DNA of 64,000 nt, the filler included, from Rhabdomonas costata (lineage: Eukaryota): the NCBI GenBank assembly GCA_019059605.1. It is 19 parts of 19 records of this genome, joined end to end, with 100 filler letters (N's around TTAATTAATTAA, not from the genome) between each part and the next. Parts side by side here need not be neighbours in the genome. Positions count along the whole stretch, not along the records: positions 33,747 to 37,024 come from JAHMHO010001082.1; positions 37,125 to 40,400 come from JAHMHO010001083.1; positions 40,501 to 43,775 come from JAHMHO010001084.1; positions 43,876 to 47,147 come from JAHMHO010001085.1; positions 47,248 to 50,542 come from JAHMHO010001086.1; 14 more parts are not named here. The stretch is one strand, 5' to 3'. This document shows, in pieces, positions 13,601 to 50,957 of this stretch. The translations under genes were made by a program, and so were the position numbers. Within the stretch, counting starts at the first letter, position 1, and each line of letters starts with the position of its first letter. A model generated the notes under the pieces. It made no database searches. It was not told where the DNA came from and saw nothing but the letters and a program-made list of their open reading frames with translations.

Positions 13601-16179
13601 CAGCAAATCCAAAGGCAAGGCGAACTACATCCCAGACCGTGATGAGCGGCAGCTGGGGGTGAAAAGCACCGCTACACAGGTGCGCCCTTCTGGGAGTATG
13701 ATGCGCTTGCTGTTCTTTTTCTTTCCAGGAAATCAGGTTCTGATGTCCGCAGACCAACTGAAGACTCGTTGGGGCATCTTTTGCAGTATGGTTCCGTGGG
13801 ATCCTACAAATGGAAGAGGAAGGTGGAGTGAAGGATGTTGGAGGACACTGTCATTTGCCCGGATCGCTAAGAATTCGGTTTCGGGAGGTGAGAAATCTTC
13901 CACTTATATAACTCAAAAAGTGATATACGAACTAACACTGTGTATGGAACGTTAGTGCGGAAAATGATGAATCTTGCTTACCAATGAGCTTGTGCTGATT
14001 TTTGGCTATGCTCCAGGAGGCAACGCAACCTTCTTCATTGCCAACCGTTCCTGCATCAGTGAACGACGTTACCTGATCACGAACATTTCGGCGGGGGATG
14101 GGGGGGGGGGTTAGGTCCACGTTTTTGCTGTGTTTGCTTGTTTTTTTGCACTGCCTCTGTCTTCAGCTGAATCTGCCTCACACGTACCTTGAGCAGCACC
14201 CGCAGGACATCGCAGTCAGCCTGCGAAAAACGGTTCCCGTTACAAATTGTTTCCTCTGCTCTGCTGTGTGCCTCGTGTCTTGTCTTTGGTGCACCTTGTC
14301 CTGCCGAGATATCCGAAGAGCCCATGTGGTCCTCGGACTGACGTTTTGCTTGAACTTGAGTTTGGCTGCGCTCTGTTGCCGGTCTTTGTGCCTAATGGTT
14401 TTTTTTGCATGATTAGCAACTTTTTTGCAAGCGGTGCGTTTCTATTGTCGTTCCACCTTTTGCAGCGAGACAAGAAGTCTTATCAGTTTACGTCAGTGAC
14501 CCCGCGTGGTCAAGTCTTCAAGGAAGTTGTGAGGTAAACCCCCATTTTACTTTTTCCCCACCGTTTCGCTCTTCACCTCCTGCGAATACTAATATAATAT
14601 GCTTTTTGCGCAGTTGTGGGATTGATGTGGTCTGCCATTATTGCATTATCCCGGGATGGGGGACAACCAGCGAGTTTGTGTATGTGGTTTCAGGGGGTTT
14701 GAATGATGGCAGTTATTGCCCAGGTGGAAGTTTTCGCGTTTTGGGGCAAGTTTCCAATTTAGGGCTTGTGAAGGTACGAAATGGGGGGGGGCAATTGGGA
14801 GGCAAAAAGTGTGCAAAGCGTATGCAGGCTGTATACATAGCATGACTTTTTTTTAACTACTTGACAATTCACATGGGGCCTTTTTTCCTTTCACGTTTGG
14901 AATTTTTTCTTGTCTTTTGACTTGACTCCGACATGCTTTGATTTTTTAAAAGCCCTGCTGAGTTTTTCATAATCCTGCACATTGTCAATTTTTTAGTGTA
15001 AGAACATAAGAACTCCTGAACACCCTTTACTTCCCGCCACCGTAGTGCCCGAAACGCCTTTCTCAAAGACCCTGATGGTTTCACCCTAAGCGCCATAACA
15101 CGCCCTTTCACGCACCCAAACTGCAACGGAACACATTTGTGCGTATGACACACCGTTTTGGGGGATGGTAGGTCTATGGACATCTAAGGCATGGTAGTGA
15201 TAAAAATGGATATGCACGGATGGGTGAGAAGGTAGGGACTGGATCTGGTGGTGCTTCTGTCATTTGGTACCCCGACCCCATGCATTAGCACCATCCAGTT
15301 CCCAGCTCGGGCATGCTTCCCCATACTCGCTTTGGGTGTTTCTGCCCCGTTGATGGGATGCCAACGCTGGAGGCTGAAGCTGACATTTTTGCGAGTGTGT
15401 CTGCCTCGTGGAGGGGCATGCCAGCTTCCGGGAATATAATATGTATCACTATGCTTTCCCCTCTTTTTTTCTCGAAAACATTTCAGCAGTTTTGTTTATC
15501 TTTCTCTCCAGGAATTCCAAACCGGCCTTGGGTCCGGGGACTTACGGCGATTCGGTCACAGACATTCCATTCAGCGCCCGCAAGATCAACACTAACCGGC
15601 CAATGGGGCCGAATACCCGAGGAAGGCCGGTGTGGGGCTGATGGGAGAAGTAGGCGAGCGTCTTTAATTGCCTCCTTTTCTTCTTGTGCGGCTCCCTCTG
15701 ATTGCGATCGTCGGTTTTTGTCCGAAAATCTGCCTAAAATTGTCTCCACCGTACTTGTGTGCTCGCTAGCTGCACCACGGGGCTCTTTTCACGACCCCCC
15801 CCCGCGCTCCCACAATTTGCTAGTGCTTGTGCGTCTGTGGCATTGTGCAGATGTAAAGAACCATTGTCATTTAGTTATTTTTTTTACTGCTTTTTGTGGA
15901 TTGGATTGGATTGGATTGGATTGGATTGGATTGCGTCGAAATATTGATTTGAGCGAATTTCTGTGTGAATGATATGCGCTGAGGATGCGCATTAGGGGAC
16001 CAACTCATTTCATCCAACGTCCTACAACAAAATGAGGCCGCACCGTTTTTGTGCAGGGACGGCACCGTTCCCCCGACAGGGACAGTCACCACCGAACGCA
16101 CATGTTTCCGGGATTTCCGGCCCCCCTCTGCTACTGTCTCTCGACCTGAACCCTCTGGGTTCGTGCTCTCTATCAACTT
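13601..16179 (+). CDS. Hypothetical multi-exon protein, possibly flagellar microtubule-associated
   Basis: AG/GT-bounded exons 13601-13679, 14167-14214, 14466-14533, 15512-~15629 (LGPGTY) and 16057-~16179 (TTERTCFRDF...EPSGFV). These motifs resemble axonemal repeat proteins. Some junctions are unresolved. Confidence 0.4.
15898..15932 (+). repeat. (GGATT)7 microsatellite
   Basis: Seen directly. Other SSRs: (GA)n ~6493-6509, (GATTCT)3 16211-16228, (GAGT)n 41683-41717, (TG)n ~60247-60264. Confidence 0.95.
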
Positions 16180-17234
16180 GTGAAGAGCTCTTGTCATCAC
16201 TTGGGTTGTTGATTCTGATTCTGATTCTGATTCATCAATCTCAAGGCCTCTGCCACTGCACGAGCAATTCTCCCGCCCCAATGGGCTCTCTTGGCGCTGG
16301 ACCTACCGGTGGAACCGGCAGGACCGTTGCCATCTCTTGGACTGGACCACCCCGCCCATGTGTTGCTTTGTTTTCTGCGCCTCTACTGGGCGCCTTCCGA
16401 CTGACGGTCGGGTGCCTATGGTGCATTGGGGAAACCCGGTCGCCGAATTGCAAAACGCCCCAAAACCCACCGCAAGCAATCACTCATTTCCCACCCCCCT
16501 CCCATCCCGGCGCTTTCTTTCTCCGAATCGGTCGTGAAACGCACTTCCCTTCATCTATGATTGGGGCCCAAGCTCCGGCTCTGTTGGCATGGGCGGTCCC
16601 TGCATCCGGCGCATTGTGTCGCTGCGGATAAAAAACTGGGGGGAAGGCGGGTCCAACACACCAGTCATAAAAATGGTCGAATCGAAGCTCCAAAGCGTGT
16701 TTTTCGTGTTCCCCTTGTTCAGTACTTGATTGGTGGGGGTTCGCCGTATCGAATGGTTCGCAGTGCCCCCTGCCACCACCTGCGCATGTCAGCCNNNNNN
16801 NNNNNNNNNNNNNNNNNNNNNNNNNNNNNNNNNNNNNNTTAATTAATTAANNNNNNNNNNNNNNNNNNNNNNNNNNNNNNNNNNNNNNNNNNNNGTGTTG
16901 GGTGTTTGGTGTGTTTGGGGTATTTTCTCTCGGGTGTTTTTTCGTCGTTTTCGGAAGTGCACTCAATCAATAGCTGCTTGAACCAATGCGACATTGGCGC
17001 TCGCTGACCACCACTGGCGTTCAGCGAGTGCTTTTTAAGACTTTGTCAGAAATTTCGGCACCTCCGTGTAGATCAAAGACAGTAGGCAGTAAATATTGTG
17101 GAATCATACGTTTTATCCTGGGGAAAGTTGTGGGTCAGACAATGGCGATTCTGCCAGAAAAGCGAACGCTCTTTCTGCCTTGCAGCTGCTCGAGCAATTG
17201 TTGGGGTATGCGACGCGTGGTTTGTGTCCGGCAG

Positions 17235-18715
17235 GTTATTCTGGAGGGTGCGCAAGGGGCCCTTCTGGACCCAGTGCACGGCGTTCCGCCTTACGTCACC
17301 AAAACACCATGTGTGGGCCGACCTGCGCTTGACCTTCTGGAGCGAACCAGGGAACCCTTTGTCGCTGTGCGGGTGGGTGTGCTTCGGAGCTACACGACGA
17401 GGCACGGCCCGGGGAGGTTTGAGGCCGAGGTCAGGGAGTGGGCAGCACGATTCCCAGAGCTCCACAACACGGCGGCGCGGTGGCAGGGAGAAATGAGAGT
17501 CGGCCCGCTGGATATTCCTGCAGCACGGGGTGGTGCGGAGATTTTTGGAGGCATGGCATTTCAATATTTCCTATATACTTTGCGTGCTTAGCACGGCATG
17601 CCAGCACAGACGGGATGCCAATGTTACAAATCATCATGCAGCACAGCGCAAACCATTCCGGCACTTGTCGAGTGAATGGGTGGACCACAACCACAAACAG
17701 GTCAGCAAGCCAACGGCGACACCATTGTGAAAAGGCGCGTGAAAGAGGGCAAATGGAGTGACGGGGACTGCGGTGAACACGCCGATGGGTCGAAACATCG
17801 GTGCATGCATGCATGGATTACTGCAGCTTGCTAGCTTGCTGATGTTGAGGCTCTGGATGGGCGCGACATAGATACATGTTATTTTCGAGTATTATTTTTG
17901 CCTGATGCGCGAATGCATAGTTTTACATACTCCTCAGGAGTGGACTTCCTCGCGGTGACTTGCCTGGACAGAATTTCTGAGCTTCCAATGCCTTTTGCAG
18001 CCGATCCGGATGGCTCGCTGGGGTGGCCGGTCTGCGTGGCACACACCAGACGAGTCGACAAGGAGTATGAGCGGCGCCATGTGGAGCTTCGATTGCTGCG
18101 TTCTGAGGTTGTCTGTTTGCTTTCTCTGAAGTTCTTGCTGTACCGTTATTCCACTTTCCCTGCTTTCCAAGGTTGAACTGCTCTGGTTGGGTTCAAGTTC
18201 CTTTGCTTTTTCCCCGTCCTTCCTCTCTTTAGTCTGGTCCCACTGACACTGACGTTGATACGTGCGTGTGGCTCCCAAATTTCCCCTTAGCTGCTGGCTT
18301 TCTTTGTTTTGTATTGTTTGTTTTTCCGTTTGTGTTTCGCTTTTACTGTTCCAGGTCCGCTTCTTTCCTTGGCTTGTCTCAGAATGGGGTGGGATTATCT
18401 TCTGGCAGTGCCTGCGCTGCTGTTCTGTTGGCCGCCGGAATGGACGCCGGGCGCGCCGGACTGGCCTCTCGGCTGCTTGAGCTTCTGGAGGAGCAACTTT
18501 GCGTGCCTGTGGGGATCATCTCATGGGGGCTGACCGCCGAACAGAAGGCGTCTGTTGGGACTTTTGCCAAGATGCTGCCAGTAATACCTTCCTCTTTCCA
18601 TGCTGAACATGAGAAGGATTTGACTTCCTTCAGCTCTGGTGATGCTCAGGCGCAAGCTTCTCCTGAAGACATTTGTATCGGCGCAGAGGGGAAAGGGAGT
18701 CTCAGCAACAGCTGA
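17235..18715 (+). CDS. purA: Adenylosuccinate synthetase, divergent type, C-terminal part
   Basis: Exon 17235-17550 (ILEGAQGALLD, PPYVT, YTTRHGPG, HNxxxxWQGEMRVG), exon 17938-18107 (GVDFLAVTCLD) and exon 18383-18715 (EEQLCVPVGIISWGLT). Intron 1 is GC-AG. The last acceptor is less certain. Confidence 0.9.
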
Positions 18716-22418: not shown

Positions 22419-23390
22419 ATGGTTCGTGTTGTGGTCTGTGGGCTGGGCTGCGAGTGCAGCACGTTCTCGCCGGTGCTGCAGTCCCGAGTAGAGTTCTGTG
22501 AGCGCCGTGGAGATGCCCTCAGGGACGCCCTGCCACACATTGTGAGAGACCCCGAGCTGCAGGAGGTGGACTTCCACTGGGGCTTCTCCGCAGGGCTTGC
22601 CTCACTTTGCTTTGTGAAATATTCCTTCCACCGGTGCGGTGCCGGTGCGCCCCCACGCTTCTCCAAATGTCAAGTTGCCGTTGCCATATTTCTTAATGGA
22701 CGACCACTAGCGTTGCCACCCGCATAATCTTGTTTTTACTTTTCTGTGCGGTACAAATGTGATCTCTTTTGTTTCGCAAAAGGGACTGGAGAGACTGACG
22801 AGTCTGAAGGGGCTGAAGAGATACCTTCAGAATCAGGCTTCACCTTCATGTTTGGGCCGCCGGATGAACATATGGCATAGGTCTACTTGACCGGCCAAAG
22901 GCAAAGGCAGCAAGGGGGCACCAAGTCACTGGAAGCAGCCTCTAGCTTCTCCTCATCACAACACAAATAAAGAAAACATGGCTGCAGGATGAAGAAAACC
23001 ACACCCCCTAACACGAGGTAAGTTGCCCGGGGGGGGGGGCTCCGCATGGCGTCCTAACCCCACATGATAAAAATACTTGAATTCCTTGGCCGCTCAAGTA
23101 GACCGCTGCCGAACATATTATGTCCATTGCTGCTAATGCACCGCTGCATCTCCTTAGGAAAAGTAGCACATACTCGCTGACTTACGATACGCTACGGCAT
23201 TGTTGGCAGGGCACTTCCCGGCGGGCGGCTCACGAAGGCTGCGTATGATGATCTATCGGCAGAGCTGCTGCAGTCTGTGAAAGAGGCCCTTCTGCAGGGT
23301 GCGGTGGACGGGGTTTACATCCGGTTGCACGGCGCTTTGTTCGTTGACTGCATAGAGGATGCGGAGGGCGACTTGCTGAGCAGGCTGCGG
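22419..23390 (+). CDS. mlrC: MlrC-like M81 family metallopeptidase, N-terminal part
   Basis: Exon 22419-22594 (MVRVVVCGLGCECSTFSP...RG) and exon 23210-23390 (ALPGG...DGVYIRLHGALFV...DAEGDLLSRLR) carry typical M81 N-terminal motifs. They join in phase via a GC-AG intron (22595-23209). The second exon is absent from the ORF track. Confidence 0.88.
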
Positions 23391-26300
23391 GTTTGCACGC
23401 CGCTTTGCAACAGATGAGATGAGGACAGGTAGGGTTGGTTGGCTCCGCATTGTAGAATGATCCTCGCGCGCATTGTAGAATGATCCTCGCGCTCGTCCAC
23501 AGTTGGCGTCTCCGAATCTTGCCAACAATGATGGATCTTGCCAACAAAACACNNNNNNNNNNNNNNNNNNNNNNNNNNNNNNNNNNNNNNNNNNNNTTAA
23601 TTAATTAANNNNNNNNNNNNNNNNNNNNNNNNNNNNNNNNNNNNNNNNNNNNGGTTGGGGGGGAGATGGCAGAGGATCGGGTGTGGAAGGACCGGGGAGC
23701 GAGGGTATGGGTGCAGCTGTGCAAACAACGATTCCTCTTAAACGGTAGCAACTTTCACAAAAGAAAAGCATGTCAGCGTTGGTTTCGGACTGCTTGAGTA
23801 TTGATGCAAGCTGAAGGCCCCACTTAAATTCCCATCTCTTACACTTCAACTCTAACCCAACCTGGTGCAGTTGGAAACGTTTTACTATGTCCACGCCTTT
23901 CAGGGCGGTCGTTTCGATGCGTGATCTAGCTCGTCAACACTCTGCACGTATAGTGCGTCGGAACAACCCTACCGAATTTGGACCAAAAATCGAGCCCCCG
24001 ATGGTCCTTAAACACGCATACGCGTTTGTATTGCCTGTCAGGCTAATTCGCTATTCGGTGTCTCCATCAGTGAGGTTGCTCCTTTGCGTGCATCGGGGAA
24101 GTTGAGTTGTTCATCCGATACAGCAGGTACTAATCTAAATCACAAAAAACGGAGGACATGGAAGATAATCCAATCAATCGCTATGCACTGTAAGAAGCGC
24201 AACGATATTTGGGCTCTGGGAACGGAGCAAACACGCAACAGCCCTGCTTCACAGCCGTGCATACTCTTACGTCAAGATCCTTTCTTCGATAAAAATTCCA
24301 CCCACTTTCACTGTGGCTTACCCCGATCGACCGCGGACAGAAATTCCATCCCTAAAATGCAAAGCGTTTTATTTGTCAATGCGCATTTTCCCGATATCCC
24401 ACATGCAACGCTACCGCCGCATTCTCCTACCGGAGCAGAAACGCAGAATGCGGAAAAGTCAAGCACAGTCGATTCGGTTCGGGTCCAGAGGCAGTGCAGT
24501 GCGTGCCGAAATATAAATGATGCGCAGCAGCACAGATATAACTCAGCCCATTCTCATGCGAAGGCTCATGAATGCGAACCCCACAAAAATATGGCCATGG
24601 ACTTTCCACACCCTGTGAAGGAGAAAAATAAAAAAAGGGTGTGGAAACAACTGCGCATATCTTTTAAGGTGGGTATCACTCAATTACGCGGTAACAAAAA
24701 GACTATGCTGGTCCAAACTCTTTCTCTGTTTCGTGGATAGAAGAAAACTGCCTGAAGCGTACGATGACGATACGAGACGCAAAACACTGGTATGCCATAG
24801 GCCCATTGTAGAAAGTGACATCATTCGCACCGTGCAGTGCAAATGGTCAGAAGGTACCGCGTATCCCAGATAAAAATGTCCCNNNNNNNNNNNNNNNNNN
24901 NNNNNNNNNNNNNNNNNNNNNNNNNNNNNNNNNNNNNNNNNNNNNNNNNNNNNNNNNNNNNNNNNNNNNNNNNNNNNNNNNNNNNNNNNNNNNNNNNNNN
25001 NNNNNNNNNNNNNNNNNNNNNNNGTGAAGCAAAGGATCTTGCCCCTTTGGAGTAGGTTTTGGTGGGGTCGGATGATGCTCCACTGTCATTTTGTCTGGTG
25101 TGTCTTCATCTACGCGGCAGGATTGAGGTCAGGAAGGGTACTTAAAATGCAAAGGGGAGCAGGAAGCACATACCGCAGAATGGAGAAAGTCAGAACGTGT
25201 CAGTGACAGGACACTCCGTTTATGTGTTGTTGAAAGAATGGCATACCACCCATAAGCCAACGCATGCCCCATACTCGGGCCCCAAGCCAAGCTTTCAACA
25301 ACATTTTATATGGGACGCCCGGTGGATGGGCAAGATTGGGTTCTGAAGGGGTCTTCCAGAAGGACACATCAAGCCTCCTCTGCCCACCTCTGCAGCTGTG
25401 TGTGCACCAATCCCCAATAGTCAAGGGTGACCTGGAAATGACGAGGAAAGACCACCTGCCTCGGGTCAACTCTTCACACCAATTGGTGGGTGACTTGCAC
25501 CGTACTCCTAGCGGTTCGAGCGAACCGGAGAACTTGGCACGGGAGCTTCTGAGTTGAGCGCACTGGCAGTTTTCGACAATCTTGCTTCACCTGAAACTTG
25601 AAGTTATGGGTGTTGAAGGGTCTTGGTCTGGTTGCTTGCAAAACATTTGGGGTGGACATTTTCCTTCAAAAGAAAGTAGACCGTGAAACGGCGCGGTGAT
25701 GCCCCCGGGGAGGAGGCTAAAAGAACAAACCAGGTCAGCCGTGCAATGCGCAGAACTGCGATGCTTTGCCGAATTGCAAAAAAGAGAAAGTGCCGCAGGC
25801 TTTCGCTCCAACGAATACAATCCAACCCTAAACAACCACAACAAAAAAGTCACTATGCACGGCCCCTTCACTGCAACGGACACGTTGGAAGACATTTCAG
25901 AAATAAGCAGACGCTTTGGCCTCGAAGAGTTCGGGGGTGTGGCATTATACTTTCGTTCAACAACTCAGAGAGTTCACCACCACTTGCGGATAGGGCAGTC
26001 TAAACGAAGCTGAAAGAATCCGTTCAGTTCGATGTGCAGTCAAAAAAGTTCTACTACTGCGATAAAACCCCAGCCACCAAAGTCCACCCTTCAATTGACC
26101 ACCTTGGCCGCCCCGCGGACTCGCCTAGATATGTCAGCAAGGCGCGACGACCAACACATCTGTATGCTTTCCACCAAAGCCATCCACCCGAATTCAAAAC
26201 GCTCTCGGGCAGATCAGCCGACCAAACCTGCCCGTTCAGGAGAAGTAGATACGAATCAGGGTGTTCCCTTAAAATATAGAGAAAAACATGAGTCGAGGGA

Positions 26301-36302: not shown

Positions 36303-36475
36303 GTAGGCTTGTCCCCTCCGACCTGCTGCCCCCCCTCCCTGACTGCATGCCCAGGCAGTCTCTATTTTTTGGTGTCCTGCTCCATTCTTGCTTTACTTCT
36401 TCCCCAGCTCCCGATTCACCTTCCTTACGATGTTTTGTTTGTGCCGCTTCTTTGCTGCTTCGTTACATTGTGAAC

Positions 36476-36891
36476 GGTGCTTTCCTGTTATCTGCCCCCC
36501 ATTTTCCAGTTATTTGCCCCCCAAATTTACCAACTGCAGGGATGACTCTTTTTTCTCTTCCAAAAAACGACAACTCCGCCATGAGATTTCTGCAGCACAA
36601 TGTCATTCCCCTAAGGGAGAGGACTTGCCATTTCAGCCACCGAATGTCACAAAGAATTGATGCCAAAGGGGACTTCCAATGGGTTAGGGTTAGGGTAAGG
36701 GTTAGGGTTACGGTTTGGGTTAGGTCTTGTAACCCTAACCCTAACCCCTGACCCTAACCCTAACCCTAACCCTGCAGAAGTCTCATGGCGGAGTTGCCAT
36801 GTTTTGGAAGAGAAAAAAGAGCTATCCCTGCAGTTGGTAAATTTGGTGGGCACGTAACAGCAAAATGGGGGGCAGATAACAGGAAAGTACC
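36476..36891. mobile_element. 416-bp non-autonomous TIR element (Merlin-like MITE) carrying telomeric repeats
   Basis: 120-bp TIRs at 36476-36595 and 36772-36891 (108/120 identical by hand count), starting GGTRC. Perfect 8-bp TSD TTGTGAAC at 36468-36475 and 36892-36899. Internal (GGGTTA)n at 36681-36724, then (TAACCC)n at 36730-36772. Confidence 0.92.
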
Positions 36892-37124
36892 TTGTGAACA
36901 AATCCATCTCATTCCTCGTCCCACACACCCTGTTACACAGCAGGGCTTTCCCACCCTGAGGTACGCCGTTGTGGAGGCTGTCGTGAGCTTTCTTCATGGG
37001 TGTGTCCCAGTATCCCAAAACACANNNNNNNNNNNNNNNNNNNNNNNNNNNNNNNNNNNNNNNNNNNNTTAATTAATTAANNNNNNNNNNNNNNNNNNNN
37101 NNNNNNNNNNNNNNNNNNNNNNNN

Positions 37125-38200
37125 GTTTGTGAGCCTTTATTGCAGGACTTGCGTGGCATGTCAACAGGCCAAGGCACAACATCATCTTCCACATGGAACA
37201 ATTGTATATGTCTATGAGTCAGTGACAGTCCAATTCCTTAGACAAGAGGAACCTGCTGAAGATCAAAACGTCACAGGGGCAGACTTTTAACCAGGTGCTG
37301 ACCGTTACGGACGGCGATAGAAAGCAGGTGATCTTGATTCCCTGCTTTTAAAAAGTGAAGGCACCTGCTTTTAAAAAGTGGCAGAGCTCTATTTGCACTA
37401 TGTGGTGCGACACAACGGATTGCCCTCCAGCATCATTTCCGACATGGAAATCAAGTTCACGAGCGCTTTGTGTAAGGCCCTGTCAGAGATAATGGAAATC
37501 AAGCAGCGGATGACGACCCCGTTCCATCAGCAGGCAAACGTCTCCGCGGATAGAACTAACCAGACAATGTCACAGGTGCTGCGGACAATTGTTCTCGTCA
37601 CAATGAAGGAAGTAGTGGATCGTATGCTGACCAAATTGATTCCACTGCTGGATTTGTTAAGATTGCTACCAACAACGTCCATCTCGGAGCCAGATAGCTC
37701 AGGCTATACTTCTTGAACATGGGCAACCACACTAGTTCTTTGACGTCCCCAACTTCTACAAGGAGAGGCTAACCGGCGAGAGCACGATGAAGATCATGGA
37801 ATGGATTGCGCATATGAACTCCTACTGGGCCTTTTTGTGCCGTGCTCTGTACCATAAACTGGCAATGGCAGCGGAGTTCTGCAACTGCAATCAATCAATA
37901 TGTGGCAGCGCAAGGGCCATCGGAACTAGCTGTACACTGACCACTTGCACAGAAGGCCGTTGGTACGTAAACAATCAAGATGCAGATCACAAATAACACC
38001 TTTGACATTAACATCTCTGCCAACATCAGCAAGAATATGTGGCTCGTTTTCCATTCTGATCCATTCGATGCGATAAAATTTGACCCCTTTCTTCAGTCGT
38101 CACAACATCATTAGGATGATGACCCCATTCTTAAACGAAGGAACAACGGGAGCTTGAACAAGCACTGATGCTTCTACTGGGAGATTTCAATGCATGGATC
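37125..38200 (+). mobile_element. Decayed Ty3/Gypsy LTR-retrotransposon integrase
   Basis: VLTVTD...KQVILIP, HNGLPSSIISD..KFTS, TTPFHQQAN..ADRTNQTM.QVLR (rve core). A GPY/F-like remnant (EGP...NNTFDINI...VFH) at ~37950-38060 and a chromodomain-like remnant follow. Contains stops, frameshifts and a 17-bp duplication cctgcttttaaaaagtg. Confidence 0.88.
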
Positions 38201-40380
38201 AGGACTTTCATTCTCACGGTGCGCCTGCTGAAGGTGATGTGTCAATGCCCCCCACATCTGACAAGCAAACCTGTGTTCTTGTGGCAGTATATGGAACCTA
38301 GAGTTGTGAGTTCCGTTGTACCAGTGTAAGTTACTTTCTTTCATTTTGCTTGCACAGCGTTTGCACCACGTTTTATGCGCGCATGCCATGTGGGATGGAA
38401 CAAACTTCAACCACAGTCAGCAGGAGAGTACAAAGTCCAGTTAGTTGTGAGAGAGAATGGATATTTTGTGGAATGTGCCACACAACCAGTATCACGTGGA
38501 GTGCGTGTGAAAAAGCCTCAGTTTTTAAGGTTGCGCCAAAAGGATCAATAAATCTAACACGTTCACAGTTCAAAGTAGTTCAACGTCAAGAAATCACGCA
38601 GTTAAATGCTCTCAAATCTCAACAAGTGACACTTCAAGGTTCAATGGATGATAGCACCACCATAATTTTGATGAAAGAAATTCGCGATGTGACATCAATG
38701 CCGTTCACTATGATGACCCGTTTGTGGTGTATGCATTTCAGTGTGTCAATGCTGAGAGGATCAGGAAGATATCAAACCTTCCCCACAAGTTGGTGCGTTT
38801 AGATCGGGAGATAATTGTGCTTCAGATCCAACACTAACCACCGGAAGAGGCTGCCACACTTTCAGTGAGGAAGCAATGCATGTGATTGGTACTATTCGGC
38901 GAATGTGCGCAGCTCGCACAGCGGTTTAGTCCACTTCCAGTGATGGAGCACTATCTGAATGAGCAGGGCAGTTCCTCGCCCATGAAGACTGCATTGGAAC
39001 CACACCCCAGCTTTGTAAATGAGAAGAATGTGATGCTATGCCCCACACTGTTCCTGGAAATTTGCCAGAACTTTGTTATGGTTTCTCAGGAGGATCTGTT
39101 TGCAGTACAAAAATTGCGCAGTTACTATTGGAGGACCGGACGGCCGACGGCTACAACGTCTTCAACAACCACTGTTGAGCGGACCAAATCATTTTTCTAA
39201 ATCCCCCGTGGTCCTTGTTGGGCTGTGTACTTGACAAAATCCTCGCTTACCTGATCAGGATACTGTTTGTTGCACCGTAATGGACGGATGCCTCGTGTTA
39301 TAATAAGCTGAAAAGACTGAGGCGAGATCGGAAGTACTGGACGCAACCGTTGTACTTGGAAGACAATGACACGTTGAGGCGCCGACATATGTGGCCAACT
39401 GTCTTCTCATAGATCAATTCAACAGAGGATTGATAGTACCAGTGGAAGGGCATATGCTTTTTCATGTTCCCACAACATCTATTGAGAAAATGTGCGCCTT
39501 TCGCCATTTGTGGTAAGGCATTTGACGCTCATAGGCCCCCCGTCCAGTTAATGGCATCTATTTCGACTGTACTGTATGGTGTCCTTTGCGGCAACTTTCT
39601 CAACATTCGAGGCTACTGGCCCTTCTGCTTCGGACGGTTGGCCCGTAGGGACCGCCAAAATGATGTCCAAAGGCCTCTTGCGGCAATTTACGCAGAAAAA
39701 TAGCGCCACGGCCAGCAGTTTAGGAAGTTTTGTGGCAAAACGACATGGGATGTGACCAGAAATGTGGGTACCAAGACCTTTGGACGAAGTTTCATGACAA
39801 TTGGCACAAGAATGTGATGAATGCATATTTTCCATATTTTCTCTCATGACCTTCTGTGCATGGACAAAAAACAGAAAGAACACGGTGAAAGCACCCAGGG
39901 TGACTAAGACCTTTCCAGGAGGGCGCCACGTGCCTTCAAATCAGTGCTTAGGTCTGCTGCCATGGAGGTAGCTGGACACAACGCGCGAAGCGACCACCAA
40001 TCCTGAGTTCACCACCCAGTTCAACCTCATCCCGGGGAGCCGATTCGGTCAAGCGACCATTGCCCTTGAACAGCAACAACAACGGCGGCGGCACCAGCAA
40101 CAGCAGCGCCGAGATAACCAAAGAAACCAAAGATAACGGCCCCCCACCACCACATAACACCCGGTCACCACCGGTTTTCGGCTGGTGGCTTAGCGGAGCC
40201 CCCAGCGACAAAGGCGGAGTCCGCGGCGTACCGCCTGCTTTTGGAGGCCCCATTTCAGCAGAGGGGCAAACTGCACACCAACAGCAAATTTAAGCTTTTA
40301 AATGAGTTTGGCTAGCACTTTCGATTCGGAAACCACTCTTTACCAATCCGGTTCAGACGATGTTTGCCCGAGTAACTCCT

Positions 40381-40400
40381 AGAAGTGGGGGTGTCACGAA
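40381..40400 (+). mobile_element. Possible polypurine tract plus start of a 3' LTR
   Basis: AGAAGTGGGGG followed by TGTCACG at the contig end, downstream of and on the same strand as the integrase remnant. Confidence 0.4.
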
Positions 40401-40598
40401 NNNNNNNNNNNNNNNNNNNNNNNNNNNNNNNNNNNNNNNNNNNNTTAATTAATTAANNNNNNNNNNNNNNNNNNNNNNNNNNNNNNNNNNNNNNNNNNNN
40501 TGTTTTTGGTGTTACGCACTTTATTTTCTCTGACCAACGAATGTCCACCCCTGCGTCCCGCCCAACCATGGGATCGAATGAGTGGGCCTGACTTGCAG

Positions 40599-43500
40599 GT
40601 ACTTCTGTCCCGTGGGGGTTTCGTCGCCCGTCGCCTGCCCAATTGGAACGTACGGGAACTCCACTGAGCTGCGCGAGCCGGACGACTGCAGTGACTGCCC
40701 AGCAGGTCCCTGCTTAGATTAAACCCTTCCGTTTTCGTATTACTTTCAGTCAACACCCCATTCGACTTTAAAGGTGACATGCCGATGCATTTGCATTGTA
40801 AGGTCTCCTCAAACCATCCTTGGAGGCTGGTGTCTGAATTCTGCTCGGTTGTGGGTGGGAAAGGGCAATTTTTCCCGTCTGCTTCAGGTTACTACTGCGA
40901 CGGCATGGGACTTCCGTATCCCACGGGACCATGTATGCAGCCTTTGCCTCCTCCCACCCCCAGGAAAGAGAGGGGGAATGAGGGATAAGTCATGTTTACC
41001 TCACTTTTACGTTCGCCTCGTTTGCCCCGTTCATTTGCGGTGTATCATCCGCTCTTGCCGTCGCTGCTTCACCAGCGATGGGGTTCTCTCTGGGGTTCTC
41101 CTCTTTCAGGCGACCCTGGGTACTACTGCCTTATGAAAGCGTATACCTCCGCCCCGCCGGGGTACCCCACTGGAGGACTCTGTCCTCGAGGTCTCTTTGT
41201 TGTTGTTGTTTTTCACGCGCTCACGAAATTTCAACCAACATTATTTTCCAGTTTAAACAATGTAATGTCATTGTGTGATTTGGGAATGCTATGTTGCAGT
41301 CCCACTGCCTTTCTGATCTCTCGTCTCGACATTGCCTCTCAGGGGGGTACTGCCCGGTCGGCAGCAGCTACCCCACCGCGTGCAATGCGGGGCAGTACAA
41401 CAACTTCACCGGGGGCAAGACCGCAGCGGACTGCTCGGCCTGTGACCCTGGGTACTACTGCGCGGGCACGAATAAGCCCGAGCCCACGGGGCCCTGTGCT
41501 GGTTCTCTCTTCCTCCTAAGATCTCCCGTGAACTGCTCACACCCGCATCACCCGCATGACGTGTGGAAACGGAAGCGAGCTGACCCTTGCATCCCCAGAC
41601 CAGTCTCGTCTATTTTTTGGCGAGTGTTGTGTATTATACATTCGTGTGTCGTTTGTGCCCTTGTACCCGTCCAGCAATAACTGAGTGAGTGAGTGAGTGA
41701 GTGAGTGAGTGAGTGAGCCCCAACTCGAGGTGGGGTGTAACGACCACGTGATGCCAAAATATCTGACACTGCCACACACGAAGGTGCTTACCCCCACCTC
41801 AACGCACATATTGCTTCACAGGAGATAGTTGCAATGAAGTTGCTGCTATTCGTGTTTCGTTTGACCGCTGTTTCACGTAATTATGTCGTGTTCCTCCCTG
41901 ATTCCATCGCTCAGCAGACTGTTGCTCCTCCCCTGTTTGTATGCTCGTGATTTCCACAGGGGGGTACTATTGCACCGGGGGTGCGACGAACGCCTATCAG
42001 TACATCGCTATGCCCGGGCACTACGCTCCTCCCGGCTCGCCAAACCAGATCGAATGCCCCGCAGGGTCCTTCCAGCAGTCCCCTGCCGCCAGCAGCTGCG
42101 ACCCATGCCGGCCTGGGTACCTTGTGTCCTTTTGCAATGTGTTGTCGTAGTGGACTTGAATATTGTGGGGCCAAAGTCGGCGTAGAGTCATGGCATTGCG
42201 CTCTCGGGTATACTCGGTCACGGTTGCTTTGAAGCATGTTTTTTTTCATAACTATGCCATGAGTCGATAGTGTGATTACGGATGCAGGTTTGTCGTGGGT
42301 CGCTTCTGCATTCAGTGGAAAAACGACGTGCTTGTCGATTTTATTGGCGGTGAGTGAAGAGCGTTTCTCTTTTGTTTACTGTGTGCTTCAGGTTCTACTG
42401 CCCATATCAGGGCATGACCTACGGCATTCCCTGCCGCATTGGGGGGTACTGCCCCTCGGGGAGTGTCTACCCCACGTTCTGCCCCCCAGGTGTGAAGAGA
42501 TGTCCAGTTTCATGTCGTGGCGTGCCCAAATGAGCAGTGGTTCTCAATTCAAGAATAGCAGGATGCTACACAAGCACGGGCGTGCTCCCACCGACCGCAA
42601 GGTCTTTCCAAAACCGCTGTCTCAAATGGACTATTCGGCCTTTTAAGCGTCTGTGTTGCCCTCGATTGGGGTGAAGTGAAAATGAAGGGTGGGTTCTACG
42701 CCGTCATTGAGATTGAGTCCCGGGTGAATCTGTCCAGTAGCAACAAACCAACACGAGATCCCGACCGCGCACATTTTCATTTCATCAGTTTACAAAAAGG
42801 CTTTTGTTCCGGTGCGGTTCCTGGTTTCTAACCGTTTAGCCAGATGCCAGAAATGCCGGGAAGCTTGGTGCCGAAATTCACCCACGACTGTGTTTTAGAT
42901 TTTTCTGCGCTACAGTGCTACAGTGCTACAGTGAATGAATCTCCTGAATGGAATTTGCTCAGGAACTTACAACGACGAGATCAACAAAGAGAATGTCACG
43001 CAGTGCAAGTACTGCCCACCTGGTGTGTATGTTGCTTCCTGTTGGTCTTGTCGACCGCTAGCTGTGGTGCCCCCACTGCACGCTCCGGCTTCATATCTGA
43101 CATGCACGCAGCCGTGCTGCTATGACCAGCAAGCCTTTCTTTGAGTTGGATTAATTTCTCGGAAGTGCTTTTTCGGGGGCTGTAGGGATGTACTGCTCCG
43201 GCTCGAACAACACCGTCCCCACGGGAACCTGCTCGGCAGGGTACTGGTGCCTCCAGGGCTGTGACTACTTCTTCTGCAACACCATGATCACGGGCAGCGT
43301 GGGAGGGGTTTGCCCCACCGGGCATTACTGCCCCAACGCCACGGCAGTCCCTGTGCCCTGCCCCGTAGGTGTGCCGTCCTCCTCTTTGAAGACTTTGGAA
43401 GCAGGGCATGACCAACCTAAATTTGGCCGACCTTTGCTCCCTCTAGCTTTTTTCTTGCTTCCCATTGTTGAAACGCTGGACTCCGGACAGCGTCTGGGTG

Positions 43501-43650
43501 GCACAATGGGTGCCGGAGTTCAGGTCAGGCTTTCGTTCAGTGTGCTTCACGAAGGTGCTTGCTTGAACGTGTTGCTCCGTCTTCCTGTAGGAACGTACAA
43601 CCCCTCACAAGGCAAGACTGCCGAGCGCGACTGCCAGCCATGCCGGCCAG
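40599..43650 (+). CDS. Large Cys-rich surface protein with GCC2/GCC3 (ephrin-receptor-like) repeats, partial
   Basis: Nine phase-consistent GT-AG exons: 40599-40705, 40888-40932, 41110-41190, 41343-41501, 41960-42116, 42392-42489, 42963-43022, 43186-43368, 43591-43650. Repeated CPxGxYC / CPxGTY motifs. Confidence 0.93.
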
Positions 43651-43971
43651 GTGTGCGTTCAAATATATATGTATATGTGTGTGGCGTGGTGTCCCCCCTC
43701 CTTCCCCGCTCGAGAAGGTCAGGTGCGCCTGGATGCACTGACCTGCACAGGCTTCTTTCGTTCAAACAACCACACNNNNNNNNNNNNNNNNNNNNNNNNN
43801 NNNNNNNNNNNNNNNNNNNTTAATTAATTAANNNNNNNNNNNNNNNNNNNNNNNNNNNNNNNNNNNNNNNNNNNNGGTTGGGGGGGGGGGAGGACACTAG
43901 ACAGGCACCCCCACTTCATCTGTGCTTCTGAATCATTAAAAACCCCACGCGAAGAAGCGTCGAAAGCATAC

Positions 43972-46815
43972 AAAGGCGGCTTTGTTGTCGCACCGGATCG
44001 TCGCCCCCGGCGCCCGAACGTTGACCGGCACTATTGCATGCAGCGTGGTCCCCTCCACGACTCCCGTCCGAGAAAAGTACCGCCGGAAAGCCCCCGCGGT
44101 CAGAGCGCACATCACGTCGTTCAGGGTAAAGTGCTCCCCTGAAAAAGAAAGCATAACCTTCACAGCCTCCACCTCTAAACCTTTGCATTGTTCATTTTCA
44201 CTCATTTTTCAGTTTCAGGGGTGACTTGGCTTCCTTCTTCTGATAGCACGCTCCACGAAAGCATCAATCGGTGGACAGAATTTGCCTTAATACATTCGCA
44301 AACACTCCTCATCCTCTGTTTAAAAGCCACATGTGGTGACCAGCTTCGCACAGCGCCAGGCGGGTAGTTTGCTGGCAATTTTTTTTGTCAAAACATTGCA
44401 AAATACATTTGTGAGGGCATCTGTGGGTCTAAATTCGTGTCCATGCATGTGTGTTAAAGTATGTGTATGTTGCCAGCTGGACTGATTATTGAGAGCTGCA
44501 TTGATGAACAAGCATGTGAAATTTCGAGATCAGCAGCATTAAACTTGGGGAATAGCCCAATCCCTTCGTTTCCGAGTACACCAGGTACACAGGGCGCGGA
44601 TATAAGGGCAAACACAAAATACACGATTTGGGACCTGCCCACCGAGAGGAGGGATTCGAGCATTCGGGGACACCACCCGATAGCTGTGCTGGGGGTAGCC
44701 CTGCTCTGGAGCACACAGCTCCACAAATCCAACACCAGTGCCCGTCTATGGATTCAAGAGATGGATTCAGTGCTTGTTCTATCCAATCTGTAGCCCCTCC
44801 TTCCCTTGAACCCATCCTTCACAACTACCAAAGTTCAGTTCGGTGGCAATATCATGCGTTTTTCTGAAATTGAGCTACAAAAAAAATAGAGCTGCTACCA
44901 CAACCCCTGTGTATCCCTTTGCTTTGGCAATATACAACAACGAAAACCTGTGGCTAGGCTCTTTTTCTGGCCAACTGCCTTGCCCTGGTCCACGGTGAGA
45001 AGACCGGACAGAATCGCGGTGCCCTTGCGACCGGACAGGGGGGCCTTCAAGACCGAAACAGAGTCGGGCCGCACAACACCGACAATGAAAAGGAAAACCT
45101 GCAGAATTTGCAAAGATGTGCAACAAAACAGCGAAGGCGTTCGCCAGTGTAAATCGCTTGCTGGATTTTTGCTTTGATCAGTTTTCATCACGTCAATGGA
45201 GGACAAAAGTCTCCAAAGAATGCGCAATTAAGCAATTTGCCCTCTCTCGCAAGCAAACAGGGATGCAGCAAAAGCCTGAAAAAAACGAAGGCGCCTCCTG
45301 CTCGGCATCTCCATTGCACAAGAGTTCATCAATATTCAGATATTCAGATTCATTTGAACAATGCAGAGCGGCAGGCAGAACAAGAAGAGAGGCAAGCGAG
45401 GTGCAACGGCTTTGCGACGAAAATTAGGATGCGCTGAGGGCACCGCTCCAAAAACGCGATCACTTCAAGCAAAAAGGGTGTACTGCGGCAGAAACTTCTT
45501 GCCCAGCTCCCTAACCATAGAATGGGGGAAGCACCCGCGAATACCCGAACTAGCGCGCAGCCCCAGAACAACCCCACGGTCCCCCACAAGGACACCGCCG
45601 TGCACAGCAGCACGGACTGCAGGCAGCCCTGTTCAAAGCTGATCACTGCGGTACACAAGGAGGAATGAAGCCCAAAAAGTCAACCAAACTTGCGGGGGCG
45701 GATGTTTCGCTACCCTTTGCGGACAAACTTAACATCATTGATATTTGATATTGTCACTGTAGTGAAGACCCCCATTTGATATTGTCACTGTAGTGAAGAC
45801 CCCCGTAGTGGTGATTTGATCCCTATAGGCCTATAGGAGGCCTATAGGCCTATAGGAGACAGAGAACGTGCCTTTCAAGAAAGAAAGCTGTAATAATTCA
45901 TCCCAAATCCTTTACCAGCGCATGTGGCCATTTAGTCTTCTTGCCATAATGACTACTATATATTGAGGGCTCAAGCCGAAGGGCCTCGGGTCTTATTTTT
46001 TGACCGTACAAACGAGGCAAAAAGTCTGCGCTGCAACCCTGCTTTTTCGAGCATTCATACTGTTTCACATGGCCCTTGGGGCATTTCCAAAAGTTTCTTG
46101 AAAACCCTATTTGCGTCCAAATGGGTGATTAGATCCGGAGGACTACTTTTTTCTCTCGAAAACCTGTCTAAGGTCAAATAGCGTTCGCGTTTTGTCACAA
46201 CACCCACACTTCCATGAGTGAAATCCCGGTGTCCACAGCGGTATGTATTTTGAACTAGCGACTTGCAGACTCGCGAGCAAGTGTAAGTACTGAGCGCAGG
46301 TTGCGGCATTTTCGTAAGGTCTTGTTTACAAGTGTCCACATGAATCCGATCCGTGCTATCTTTCCATCATACAGAAATTTTTGCACCCAAACCTCTTCGT
46401 TGACTTCCGGCAGATAGATTTTTCCTTTTCAGGATACACAGATCGAACTCCTTGCGCGAGAACCATGAAGCATGAAGCAACCTGCGCCGGAAAGCAACAG
46501 GGTCAGCCATGAGACGGCGAACAAGAACGGTGTGGAGGCTGCCGCTCCAGTCATTGGAGGGGCTACAACACAGCTGCTTGAACCTGTCGAGCATTGCAGG
46601 GTCTGATCTGCACAGCTCTGTGGACTCTTCGGGGAAGCAGCGGAGTCAGTGGGCAGGGGCTGACATGGAGGGGTCGCATTGGTGGAGACATCGGTGAAGA
46701 TGCTGCGGAAGACCATCACCAGCCCGGTGCCGTCGCAAATGCAGTGGTGCACCCGCCACAGTAGCACACAGCCGCCCCCCGGGACGTTGGAGATGCGGTA
46801 CATCCTCCACAGACA
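43972..46815 (-). CDS. Wax ester synthase/diacylglycerol acyltransferase (WS/DGAT, WSD family), partial
   Basis: Exons 46815-46584 (catalytic HHCICDG = HHxxxDG), 45645-45464, 45098-44948 and 44138-43972 (TLNDVMCALTAGAFRRY...PVNVR...DN). All GT-AG and phase-consistent. Confidence 0.93.
45743..45858. repeat. 31-bp tandem duplication plus four CCTATAGG palindromes, in a WS/DGAT intron
   Basis: atttgatattgtcactgtagtgaagaccccc twice (45743-45804). CCTATAGG at 45822, 45830, 45841 and 45849. Confidence 0.9.
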
Positions 46816-47593
46816 CTGCAAGGGACCCCCGCCCTTCTTTGTCCATCACCTTCAAAATTACGCCATCCCGAACGGCAGCGGGATTGTCAGAAAAATACAC
46901 TTGCATTGGAGACTCATCCCTGGGTTTGCATACGCTGGGTGGGCAGAAGAACATAATGAATACCACTGACGTTGGGGGGGGAGGGGTAACAGTTGCCATT
47001 GGTACCATTATTACCACTGGTGCCCCCGCGTGCTTTCTCTCCCCCTCCCCCCAGTTACAAAAGGCACAGTCTTGCACCAACCCTGACACAAAACCGGCGA
47101 GAGCGCACCTTTATGACTTACCAAACCCCACCAAACACACCCACCACNNNNNNNNNNNNNNNNNNNNNNNNNNNNNNNNNNNNNNNNNNNNTTAATTAAT
47201 TAANNNNNNNNNNNNNNNNNNNNNNNNNNNNNNNNNNNNNNNNNNNNGTGTTGTGGTGACTGACGTATCATACTGGTTGTGCATGTCCCACAAGTCAATA
47301 AACTAATCCTGCACATTTTCACTTGCATACACAAAAAAGGAGAAGTTTGGCGAAGTGCGAGGCCACCGTAAGCCATCGGTCGCCATAGTGCGCCATATGG
47401 TGGCCCTATTATTGGCCTTGCAGGGAGTTAGGTGGCAATGCCCCGAGGACTGTCGTGAGTCATCGTTCTCCATCGTGCGCCCTTGACGCCGTCCATACTT
47501 GGAGTATGGATAATGTGTGTGCGCACGCGGTTTTGGGGGGAACCCAGGACCGGCCACGCAGAGTTTCGGGAGGCCTGTCGTATATGCATAATA

Positions 47594-47852
47594 GGCATTA
47601 CTTTAGAATTGTACCCACGGCCAGGAACCCTAACCCTAACCGTATCCCTAACCCTAACGCTAACCCTATCCCTAACCCTAACCCTAACCCTAACCCCCAA
47701 AGGTAACGTCAAAGAAGCCAATAAACACATGTCACTGAAAGTAGCCGTCACGGATGAGCTCACATTTCCAAAAGATCATAAAGCGTAAGCATCTCTCTCT
47801 CTCTCAAAAAAGAACCTGAAGACAGAGGTGGGTACAATTCTAAAGTAACGCC
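47594..47852. mobile_element. 259-bp non-autonomous TIR element (Merlin-like MITE) carrying telomeric repeats
   Basis: 25-bp TIRs GGCRTTACTTTAGAATTGTACCCAC at 47594-47618 and 47828-47852 (1 mismatch). 8-bp TSD GCATAATA (47586-47593) / GCATAACA (47853-47860). About 12 (AACCCT) units at 47626-47698. Confidence 0.9.
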
Positions 47853-48245
47853 GCATAACAATACACCAGGCCTGCTTCCGCTTAGCCCTCGTAACGCCTC
47901 CTCTCAAGGTTCTGGAACCCTTCTTTGCAGATGCAGATATCGCAAGGCGGGAAGGATGCTCATTGTGAGTGTAAGCTGTGGTGCCGAACGGGGAATAGGC
48001 GCAAGAACATCTCAGAGGGGTCAAGCCAAGACAGACTGGGTTTTGCGGGTCCACTCAACGTTGCGGAAAACCCGTCTTTCGGACCTTAACTTTTACTATC
48101 GACGGGGTTTCTTTTCTTCAGAATTTGAGATATTACACATGACATATGACACACACACTCACACTCACACTCACACCAGGACTTCACAACAGCATCCACA
48201 GCATATATATCTAGTAGGTAGTACGTACATATCACCACCACTCAC

Positions 48246-50436: not shown

Positions 50437-50957
50437 CTGCAAATCGTCCTGTTCAGCGTCCGTGCCTGTGCAAGACATCAGCCAGAGAAGCTCGGCATCA
50501 GATTACAACATGCGGATTATCTGAGTTCTAGTCCCCAACCACNNNNNNNNNNNNNNNNNNNNNNNNNNNNNNNNNNNNNNNNNNNNTTAATTAATTAANN
50601 NNNNNNNNNNNNNNNNNNNNNNNNNNNNNNNNNNNNNNNNNNTCAATTTTAAACCATTTGTTTGAACGGAGATTCGAAAATGGATGGGGTAGAGGTTGGG
50701 TTAGGGTGTGTCACCCAAAGGTGAGTCTTTGCGAACAAAGGCTGTGCCAACAACTCTCTCTTCCCACAAGCCGCCGCCGGCCAACCGGAAAAATGAATGT
50801 TAAAAGCGAGCTACCGCAACTTATGGGTTTCGGGTTGCCGGTAGTCGGTTGCATATTTTGGTTTTTTGTGAGCTGCAATAGAGCCGACATTCTCACCCTC
50901 AGAGAAAGGTTCGTACCTGTCTTTTGCTTTGTTTCGTTCTGCTGCTTTCCGAAAAAG

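Follow-up and report, generated by a model that had tools for sequence, protein, structure and literature searches.

Telomere-type repeat arrays inside probable Merlin/IS1595 transposon copies of Rhabdomonas costata

Merlin transposons form a superfamily paired with the IS1595 family of bacteria (Feschotte 2004, after the summary in PMC8101967). Their terminal inverted repeats (TIRs) are 24–462 bp long with a conserved terminal GG, and they are flanked by target-site duplications (TSDs) of 8–9 bp (PMC8101967, Lopes et al. 2021). Two Merlin families, F1 and F2, both with 8-bp TSDs, are reported there from Euglena gracilis. F2 starts GGTACTTGTCTGTTAG and F1 starts GGTACTTGTTCGCTATGCGACCCCC, and no telomere array is present in the full F1 sequence or in the F2 alignment (PMC8101967 supplement 3). 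The string “telomer” has zero occurrences in the main text of PMC8101967. Here we analyse 64,000 nt of the Rhabdomonas costata genome (GenBank assembly GCA_019059605.1), called the window below, which is made up of 19 pieces of ~3.3 kb joined end to end with N/TTAATTAATTAA spacers between them. Two short elements, E1 (36476–36891) and E2 (47594–47852), lie on separate pieces of the window and enclose telomere-type hexamer arrays; a third element, E3, has none. We propose that E1 and E2 are non-autonomous copies of Merlin/IS1595 cut-and-paste transposons, and that their arrays are repair scars made by telomerase. Taken as a whole, scar origin included, this explanation seems to us reasonably probable.

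Telomere repeats accompany mobile DNA elsewhere, as in the ciliate TBE/Tel-1 elements, the Helitrons of nematodes and Paramecium, and the Penelope-like elements Athena and Coprina. These belong to other classes (Tc1/mariner-like, rolling-circle and reverse-transcriptase elements, respectively) and carry the repeats at their very termini or in 3′ tails. From the work of Nergadze, Giulotto and colleagues, telomerase is said to insert short interstitial telomeric sequences where double-strand breaks are repaired in vertebrates. In the literature searched, which includes the accessible part of PMC9498494, neither Merlin elements nor the miniature inverted-repeat transposable elements (MITEs) derived from them were found described as holding telomere arrays.

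E2 and its full-length relative

An exact-pattern scan of metagenome contigs with the core of the E2 TIR found one locus, L001, on a contig of 1,263 bp; viral and genome contigs gave no match to the E2 TIR. At positions 38–1137, L001 carries an element of 1,100 bp that has the 25-nt TIRs of E2 and is flanked by a perfect 8-bp TSD, GAATATAA. E2 and L001 align over 225 nt with four mismatches (98.2% identity), and L001 positions 184–1058, a segment of 875 bp, are absent from E2. E2 thus descends from an autonomous Merlin by a recent internal deletion. It retains only the first 9 and the last ~8 codons of the transposase. The features of E2 are as follows.

47594–47852, minus strand (transposase sense): E2, 259 bp, internal-deletion derivative of a 1.1-kb autonomous Merlin (alignment to L001 38–1137)
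47586–47593, unstranded: left TSD, GCATAATA (flank comparison)
47853–47860, unstranded: right TSD, GCATAACA, 7/8 identical to the left
47594–47618, plus strand: left TIR, 25 nt (inverted-repeat scan)
47828–47852, minus strand: right TIR, 25 nt, with G at position 4 where the left has A; L001 has the same difference
47626–47696, plus strand: array, (CCCTAA) x 11.8, homologous to L001 70–118 (repeat scan and L001 alignment)
47763–47764, unstranded: deletion junction, with 2-nt (AT) microhomology (L001 alignment)
47792–47801, unstranded: (TC)5 insertion of 10 nt relative to L001 (L001 alignment)

The arms of E2 are complementary at 24 of 25 positions; the element starts GGCAT and ends GCGCC (reverse complement GGCGT). 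At TIR position 4 the left and right ends read A and G in E2 (47597 and 47849) and likewise in L001 (41 and 1134), and G and A in E1 (36479 and 36888). This asymmetry looks like a family feature that marks the two ends, not like random decay.

The E2 array lies 9 nt from the left TIR. The array of L001 occupies positions 70–118, again 9 nt inside the equivalent TIR. The E2 array is longer by 24 nt, and a CTAACG variant unit is common to both. Since the autonomous element holds the same array at the same TIR, the array is part of the transposon and moves along with it. Within the E2/L001 lineage it has been inherited, and at least two insertion sites, the E2 and L001 loci, received it along with the element. 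On the strand opposite the array listing, L001 has an intact open frame of 311 codons, whose product we call P0121. Read in the sense of the transposase, the order at the end of the element is stop codon, 33 nt, GGGGG(TTGGGG)(TTAGGG)n, 9 nt and TIR, such that the array fills about one third of the 3′ non-coding DNA. The G-rich strand of the array is that of the mRNA sense, and its 5′-to-3′ direction is toward the nearest end of the element.

P0121 matches the Pfam model DDE_Tnp_IS1595 (PF12762) with 39.2 bits and an E of 9e-10 (curated cut-off 27), and the NCBIfam model transpos_IS1595 (NF033547) with 79.4 bits and an E of 3.3e-22 (curated cut-off 75). The Pfam zinc-finger model Zn_Tnp_IS1595 (PF12760) gave no report on P0121 at E <= 0.01. 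A word-indexed search of 5.8 billion proteins yielded 28 proteins, namely P0121 itself, 26 relatives at 39–82% identity and one bacterial-type IS1595 protein, the closest of its kind, at 23% identity (E 4e-4); all but one of the 28 are encoded on contigs of 0.85–2.1 kb. A search for the transposase family in viral contigs gave 23 pattern matches, none of which was confirmed. An alignment of 14 members shows no variation at D139, D213 and K265 and almost none at D258; it also shows a CxxC...C...C motif in which C33, C36 and C53 are invariant and C58 nearly so. The AlphaFold model of P0121 (pLDDT 85, pTM 0.79) has an RNase-H-like core, in which D139 falls on core strand one, D213 after strand four and D258 at the opening of the helix that follows. 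Among solved structures, Foldseek ranks retroviral integrase cores closest, together with the Sleeping Beauty, ISCth4 and Mos1 transposases. The block STQGIDGVWGNLK of P0121 lines up by eye with the Merlin block of E. gracilis F1. From the alignment inspected by eye together with the model, the catalytic triad is likely D-D-D, with D258 as the third acid followed by K265 seven residues on.

The assignment of the E2 lineage to Merlin/IS1595 holds, each feature tested having been found except the Pfam zinc-finger model. Elements of the hAT superfamily also make 8-bp TSDs, and their termini are (C/T)A. For E2 a hAT origin was ruled out by the GG termini and by the IS1595-type enzyme of the autonomous relative, though the TSD length fits.

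The flanks of the L001 element (1–37 and 1138–1263) have 31% GC, and the element itself has 50%. The window stands at ~50–51% GC (51% in this comparison), and only 0.2% of its 160-nt sub-windows are at or below 33%.

E1, E3 and the rest of the window

E1 is gene-less and nearly a full palindrome, with the following features.

36476–36891, unstranded: E1, 416 bp (TIRs, TSD and fold)
36468–36475, unstranded: left TSD, TTGTGAAC, identical to 36892–36899
36892–36899, unstranded: right TSD, TTGTGAAC, 8/8 identical to the left
36476–36595, plus strand: left TIR, with a 22-nt subterminal direct repeat (36481–36501 and 36503–36523; inverted-repeat and direct-repeat scans)
36772–36891, minus strand: right TIR (inverted-repeat scan)
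36596–36680, unstranded: unique segment of 85 nt, in the left half only; no protein similarity found
36681–36724, plus strand: G-arm, (GGGTTA) x 7.3 (tandem-repeat scan)
36730–36773, plus strand: C-arm, (TAACCC) x 7.2; it adjoins the right TIR and faces the G-arm head-to-head over a spacer of 5 nt

The arms are 120 nt long and 90% complementary. The first bases are GGTGC and the last GTACC, and the end pattern is GGT(A/G)CTTTCCTGTTATCTGCC. The G-arm stands 85 nt from the left TIR. E1 folds into a single hairpin (dG -155.5 kcal/mol, z -22.7). Each arm contains the 22-nt direct repeat, and these subterminal repeats look like putative transposase-binding sites.

Support for Merlin is found in the termini. 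With up to three mismatches allowed, the terminal 16-mer of E. gracilis Merlin F2 has a single match in the window, and this match is the right terminus of E1, which reads GGTACTTTCCTGTTAT; it agrees at 13 of 16 positions and is in register. About 0.35 chance matches are expected window-wide, and a match at one of the six element termini is therefore very unlikely to be fortuitous. Aligned by eye with E. gracilis F1, the E1 terminus agrees at 18 of 26 positions. We suggest with good confidence that E1 is a non-autonomous copy from a Merlin lineage akin to those of E. gracilis.

Searches for an E1 partner were negative. The subterminal 21-mer of E1 has no match in viral, metagenome or genome contigs, and no autonomous element with the E1 TIR was found there. 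The peptide encoded by the E1 TIR, compared with 1.84 billion representative proteins, has two matches at 28–34% identity to unrelated repetitive proteins, which we take as chance. Searches of the window gave no transposase for E1 or E3, and a protein-similarity search found no transposase remnants in the window except the ends retained in E2 itself. The negative results for E1 weigh little, since the protein libraries seem not to include the host: two coding frames of the window reach 46–53% identity at best. E1, E2 and E3 strings were also not found in the supplements of PMC8101967, a weak negative, long FASTA lines having been compared over their first 400 characters.

When the window was scanned blind for inverted GG...CC ends flanked by an 8-bp TSD, three elements emerged, E1, E2 and E3, as opposed to none in each of 10 shuffles. 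The third element has these features.

22874–23110, unstranded: E3, 237 bp, GG...CC ends, TIRs of 25 nt complementary at 22 of 25 positions
22866–22873 and 23111–23118, unstranded: E3 TSD, GAACATAT, a perfect 8 bp (flank comparison)

The ends of E3 begin GGCA, as those of E2 do, and it has no telomere-type array. The E3 core has no match in viral contigs. From its DNA features E3 is probably a Merlin-derived copy; E1, too, fits Merlin by DNA features only. GG at the start and CC at the end are found in all four of E1, E2, E3 and L001, and their TSDs match at 8/8, 7/8, 8/8 and 8/8 positions, respectively. Elements with a 9-bp TSD were not found in the window. A further candidate at 14854–15877, with 15-nt arms and a poly-T “TSD”, was judged to be chance. 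For each TIR of E1 and E2, matches in the window are confined to the element’s own two ends, and two matches occurred in none of 100 shuffles.

E1 and E2 between them contain all 49 of the telomere-type 12-mers of the window. Elsewhere, shorter telomere-type words are at chance level (16 8-mers seen against 11.4 expected, 3 9-mers against 2.8, and 1 10-mer against 0.7), so that E3 is to be regarded as lacking an array. The lone CCTAACCC word of E3 was rejected as the relic of an array on the same 8-mer counts. Merlin-type elements, which hold all the arrays, amount to about 1–1.5% of the window, and there are three Merlin-like elements in its ~62 kb. A degenerate telomere-like stretch of 27 nt, GGGGTAGAGGTTGGGTTAGGGTG, is present at 50682–50707; with a piece starting 40 nt away, it is too short and too near the edge to judge.

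A preliminary description of this DNA had presented two elements on different contigs with TIRs that differ in sequence and length (120 and 25 nt), and had named them the only clear telomeric arrays in the window; both statements are borne out, and the similarity of E1 to E2 extends to the hexamer arrays and nothing else. It had also placed them in Merlin and suggested a search for a DDE_Tnp_IS1595 transposase with matching termini. Such an enzyme is P0121, from the relative of E2 with its GG termini and 8-bp TSD, and the terminus of E1 matches an E. gracilis Merlin; the placement stands for E2 and is probable for E1, and the families are then not unrelated, as had been said, both being Merlin on this view. 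That both elements start with GG and have an 8-bp TSD is right for the GG and for E1, and for E2 needs the correction that its TSD is not perfect. The “one design” attributed to them is looser than described. It does not extend to the orientation of the array relative to the nearest end, which is opposite in the two, nor to the head-to-head pair of E1, and E3 has no array.

The remainder of the window has a eukaryotic look, with exon-like frames bordered by GT...AG, and two of its pieces have internal N gaps. An Rfam search of the window gave no match. Pfam, run on 61 open frames, recognised one adenylosuccinate synthetase exon and the domains LRR_6, HisKA and, weakly, Kelch_6, and nothing more. 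The best protein match of the LRR frame is at 46% identity. The synthetase exon, at 16974–17588 on the plus strand, has best matches of just 48–53% identity, with Patescibacteria and actinomycetes among the named ones; it is either divergent or a bacterial-type purA within a eukaryotic context. The segment 8001–10000 shows extreme strand asymmetry (GC skew -0.37, AT skew +0.62) and contains numerous short tandem repeats rich in A+C, CAACAC, ACACA, CACCCA and CGAAGAC among them. Perfect two-copy tandem duplications are found at 45743–45804 (31 nt), 45822–45858 (19 nt) and 23446–23492 (23 nt).

Origin of the arrays

We propose the following mechanism. A DDE-type transposase would recognise the GG-terminated inverted ends and insert the element with an 8-bp staggered cut. 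The TSDs TTGTGAAC, GCATAATA, GAACATAT and GAATATAA are AT-rich in a genome of 51% GC, which hints at an AT-rich target preference. DNA cut by the transposase would be a natural place for breaks, and the arrays would be telomerase-made repair scars at such breaks within break-prone elements. In the E2/L001 lineage the scar would be one-sided and followed by rejoining 9 nt from the TIR. E1 would represent a different Merlin lineage in which the whole interior has been replaced by the head-to-head pair of G-arm and C-arm; its scar would be two-sided, or one-sided and followed by fold-back, in which a capped half-element is copied back on itself. Scarred elements would later be amplified by transposition, the arrays not being cargo selected for function. 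As the autonomous element already holds the array in its 3′ non-coding DNA, the repeats would spread passively whenever it or its derivatives transpose. The 875-bp deletion of E2, with its 2-nt microhomology, is what abortive gap repair would be expected to give.

The scar origin itself is close to evenly balanced, and we put it forward tentatively. The G-strands of E1 point inward, tip to tip over 5 nt, a geometry to be expected of two telomerase-extended ends that have been joined, and to be expected equally from fold-back of one capped half-element. In L001, an array starting on a run of five G residues would suit priming by telomerase. Telomerase healing of broken elements was one of several options listed in the preliminary description, and it is the origin that we favour, on inferred grounds. 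The view of the repeats as extra cargo of MITEs, also advanced there, has to be given up for the E2 lineage, where they are already within the autonomous transposon. Nor is the position of both elements just downstream of a splice donor, as stated there, confirmed: GT motifs occur 173 nt upstream of E1 (at 36303) and 138 nt upstream of E2 (at 47456). The claims of a high-density “system” and of intron targeting go beyond the evidence.

Several points weigh against our explanation. The two arms of E1 are equal (44 and 44 nt) and the element is close to a complete palindrome, which fits a symmetric origin, by fold-back or from long TIRs that contained the array, better than two independent cappings. 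A telomerase origin assumes that TTAGGG is the host’s own telomere repeat. The array persists in L001, a very compact and apparently functional autonomous element, in an orientation that mimics a real chromosome end; and that two Merlin lineages of one genome have arrays while the rest of the 62 kb has none may just as well point to selection. Telomere-type sequence also occurs in or near Merlins elsewhere, in supplementary sequences of PMC8101967 on which that paper does not comment: a Ptychodera flava Merlin family has TTAGGGTTAGGGTTAG inside its common 5′ end in 7 of the 7 copies examined, one further P. flava Merlin copy abuts a long CCCTAA array at the start of its contig (both supplement 2), and a dinoflagellate contig (BGNK...), extracted at a Merlin match, has inverted degenerate (CCCTAAA)n arms on the two sides of a palindromic core. 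E1 is called a Merlin from its GG ends, its 8-bp TSD and the 13/16 terminal match, and no autonomous partner of it was found. The GGTACTT start may not be specific to the lineage of E1 and E. gracilis, and it is no evidence of what the host is. Further copies of E1 or E2 were not found within the window, and a multi-copy status is presumed from the logic of sampling, with two or three elements per 62 kb. Finally, the difference in GC between the L001 flanks and the window means that L001 may sit in another organism. A copy in an AT-rich genome would suggest horizontal transfer; alternatively, the flanks may be an unusual region.

The foremost alternative, which we regard as unlikely, is that the arrays are a selected module of Merlin elements. 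Such a module could bind host telomere-repeat proteins that might tether or protect the excised linear element; it could form the 3′ end of the transposase mRNA, or a G-quadruplex in it, by way of TERRA-like UUAGGG repeats; or it could nucleate base J, in a euglenozoan, and stop read-through. Much of what was just set out speaks for it: in L001 the array is kept although it takes up about a third of the 3′ non-coding DNA of an intact element, its G-rich strand is in the mRNA sense and is directed 5′ to 3′ to the nearest end as at a real telomere, and in E2 it has been retained through the deletion and is even longer. Two Merlin lineages have arrays and the other ~98% of the window has none, and the P. 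flava family has TTAGGGTTAGGGTTAG inside its 5′ end in the seven copies examined. Yet E3 and the E. gracilis F1 and F2 Merlins are without an array, which argues that the arrays are sporadic and not a fixed part of the Merlin design. A selected module is also hard to square with the opposite orientation to the nearest end in E1 and in E2/L001, with the difference in length (8 against 12 units) and with the degenerate units.

An origin free of telomerase is somewhat less likely again. Here the array would arise by slippage from a G-rich subterminal seed, or by capture in or beside an existing telomeric tract, and E1 would be a fold-back dimer of one array-bearing end. Toward its inner edge the L001 array passes into TTGGGG and GGGGG units, as a seed would have it; the near-identical copies differ in array length, and hence slippage does occur; and the almost complete palindrome of E1, with its equal arms, suits a dimer. 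Slippage must, however, converge on the exact canonical TTAGGG in two unrelated sequences, and telomere-type words outside the elements are at chance level.

Very improbable is a reading of E1 as no transposon at all (a local palindromic break-repair scar with coincidental TSD and GG) or as a member of another superfamily with 8-bp TSDs (hAT or P): the failure to find another copy of E1 or a transposase in the window or in viral, metagenome and genome contigs is set against a perfect 8-bp direct repeat that borders a 120-nt inverted repeat with no gap on either side, a structure seen in 0 of 10 shuffles, against termini that match a Merlin in register over 16 nt and are GG, not the (C/T)A of hAT, and against subterminal direct repeats resembling transposase-binding sites.

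If the arrays are telomerase scars, or of whatever origin, they provide a concrete source of interstitial telomeric repeats, all of which are transposon-borne in the window, with one family holding the repeat in its autonomous element. Should this be true genome-wide, annotators would be wrong to take such arrays for traces of fused chromosomes. Telomere seeds scattered in this way could also have effects on fragile sites, on chromatin marks or on the healing of chromosomes. It is tempting to go further and to see a recurrent functional accessory, independent Merlin lineages keeping a short host-telomere array just inside their end; the lineages would be the two found here and perhaps the P. 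flava family and the dinoflagellate copies near (CCCTAAA)n arms. We think this improbable. In that case the task of the array would be to attract telomere-binding proteins or telomerase, either to the element or to the linear form that is excised, or else to shape the 3′ end of the transposase mRNA. Interstitial telomeric sites would then be seeded in many genomes by such elements, which could pass between hosts; the AT-rich flanks of L001 are unlike this genome.

Comparison with described elements

The elements share with Merlins a DDE_Tnp_IS1595 transposase of ~300 amino acids, TIRs of at least 24 nt that start with GG, and 8-bp TSDs. L001 is like E. gracilis F1 in being compact, intron-less and ~1.1 kb long. 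E1 is like F2 in its GGTACTT..CTGTTA end and in the subterminal direct repeats within the TIR. In contrast to F1 and F2, E1 and E2/L001 have a telomere-type hexamer array inside them. P0121 is only distantly related to bacterial-type IS1595 proteins and, judged by eye and from the model, departs from the Merlin/IS1595 norm in that its third catalytic acid is apparently D and not E. With its likely D-D-D triad it adds an intact compact Merlin clade, known from metagenome contigs.

Like MITEs and foldback elements, E1, E2 and E3 are small (416, 259 and 237 bp), non-coding, bounded by TIRs and flanked by TSDs, and E1 is almost wholly self-complementary. A MITE family has a high copy number by definition, and the three are called MITE-like on the structure of their window copies. 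Unlike a typical MITE, E2 is a simple recent deletion derivative that is 98% identical to its parent.

The arrays resemble the short interstitial telomeric sequences of vertebrates in being short (40–70 nt), composed of exact units and internal, and the succession of G-arm, short spacer and C-arm in E1 fits insertions made by telomerase during break repair. They differ in being inside a mobile element and, in E2/L001, in being dispersed by transposition. With the TBE/Tel-1, Helitron and Athena/Coprina elements, E1 and E2 have in common that mobile DNA carries telomere repeats; here the array is internal, just inside the TIR or central. Merlin elements are known, as is mobile DNA of other classes that bears telomere repeats. 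What appears to be new is the internal telomere-type array in Merlin, a modest variation on both.

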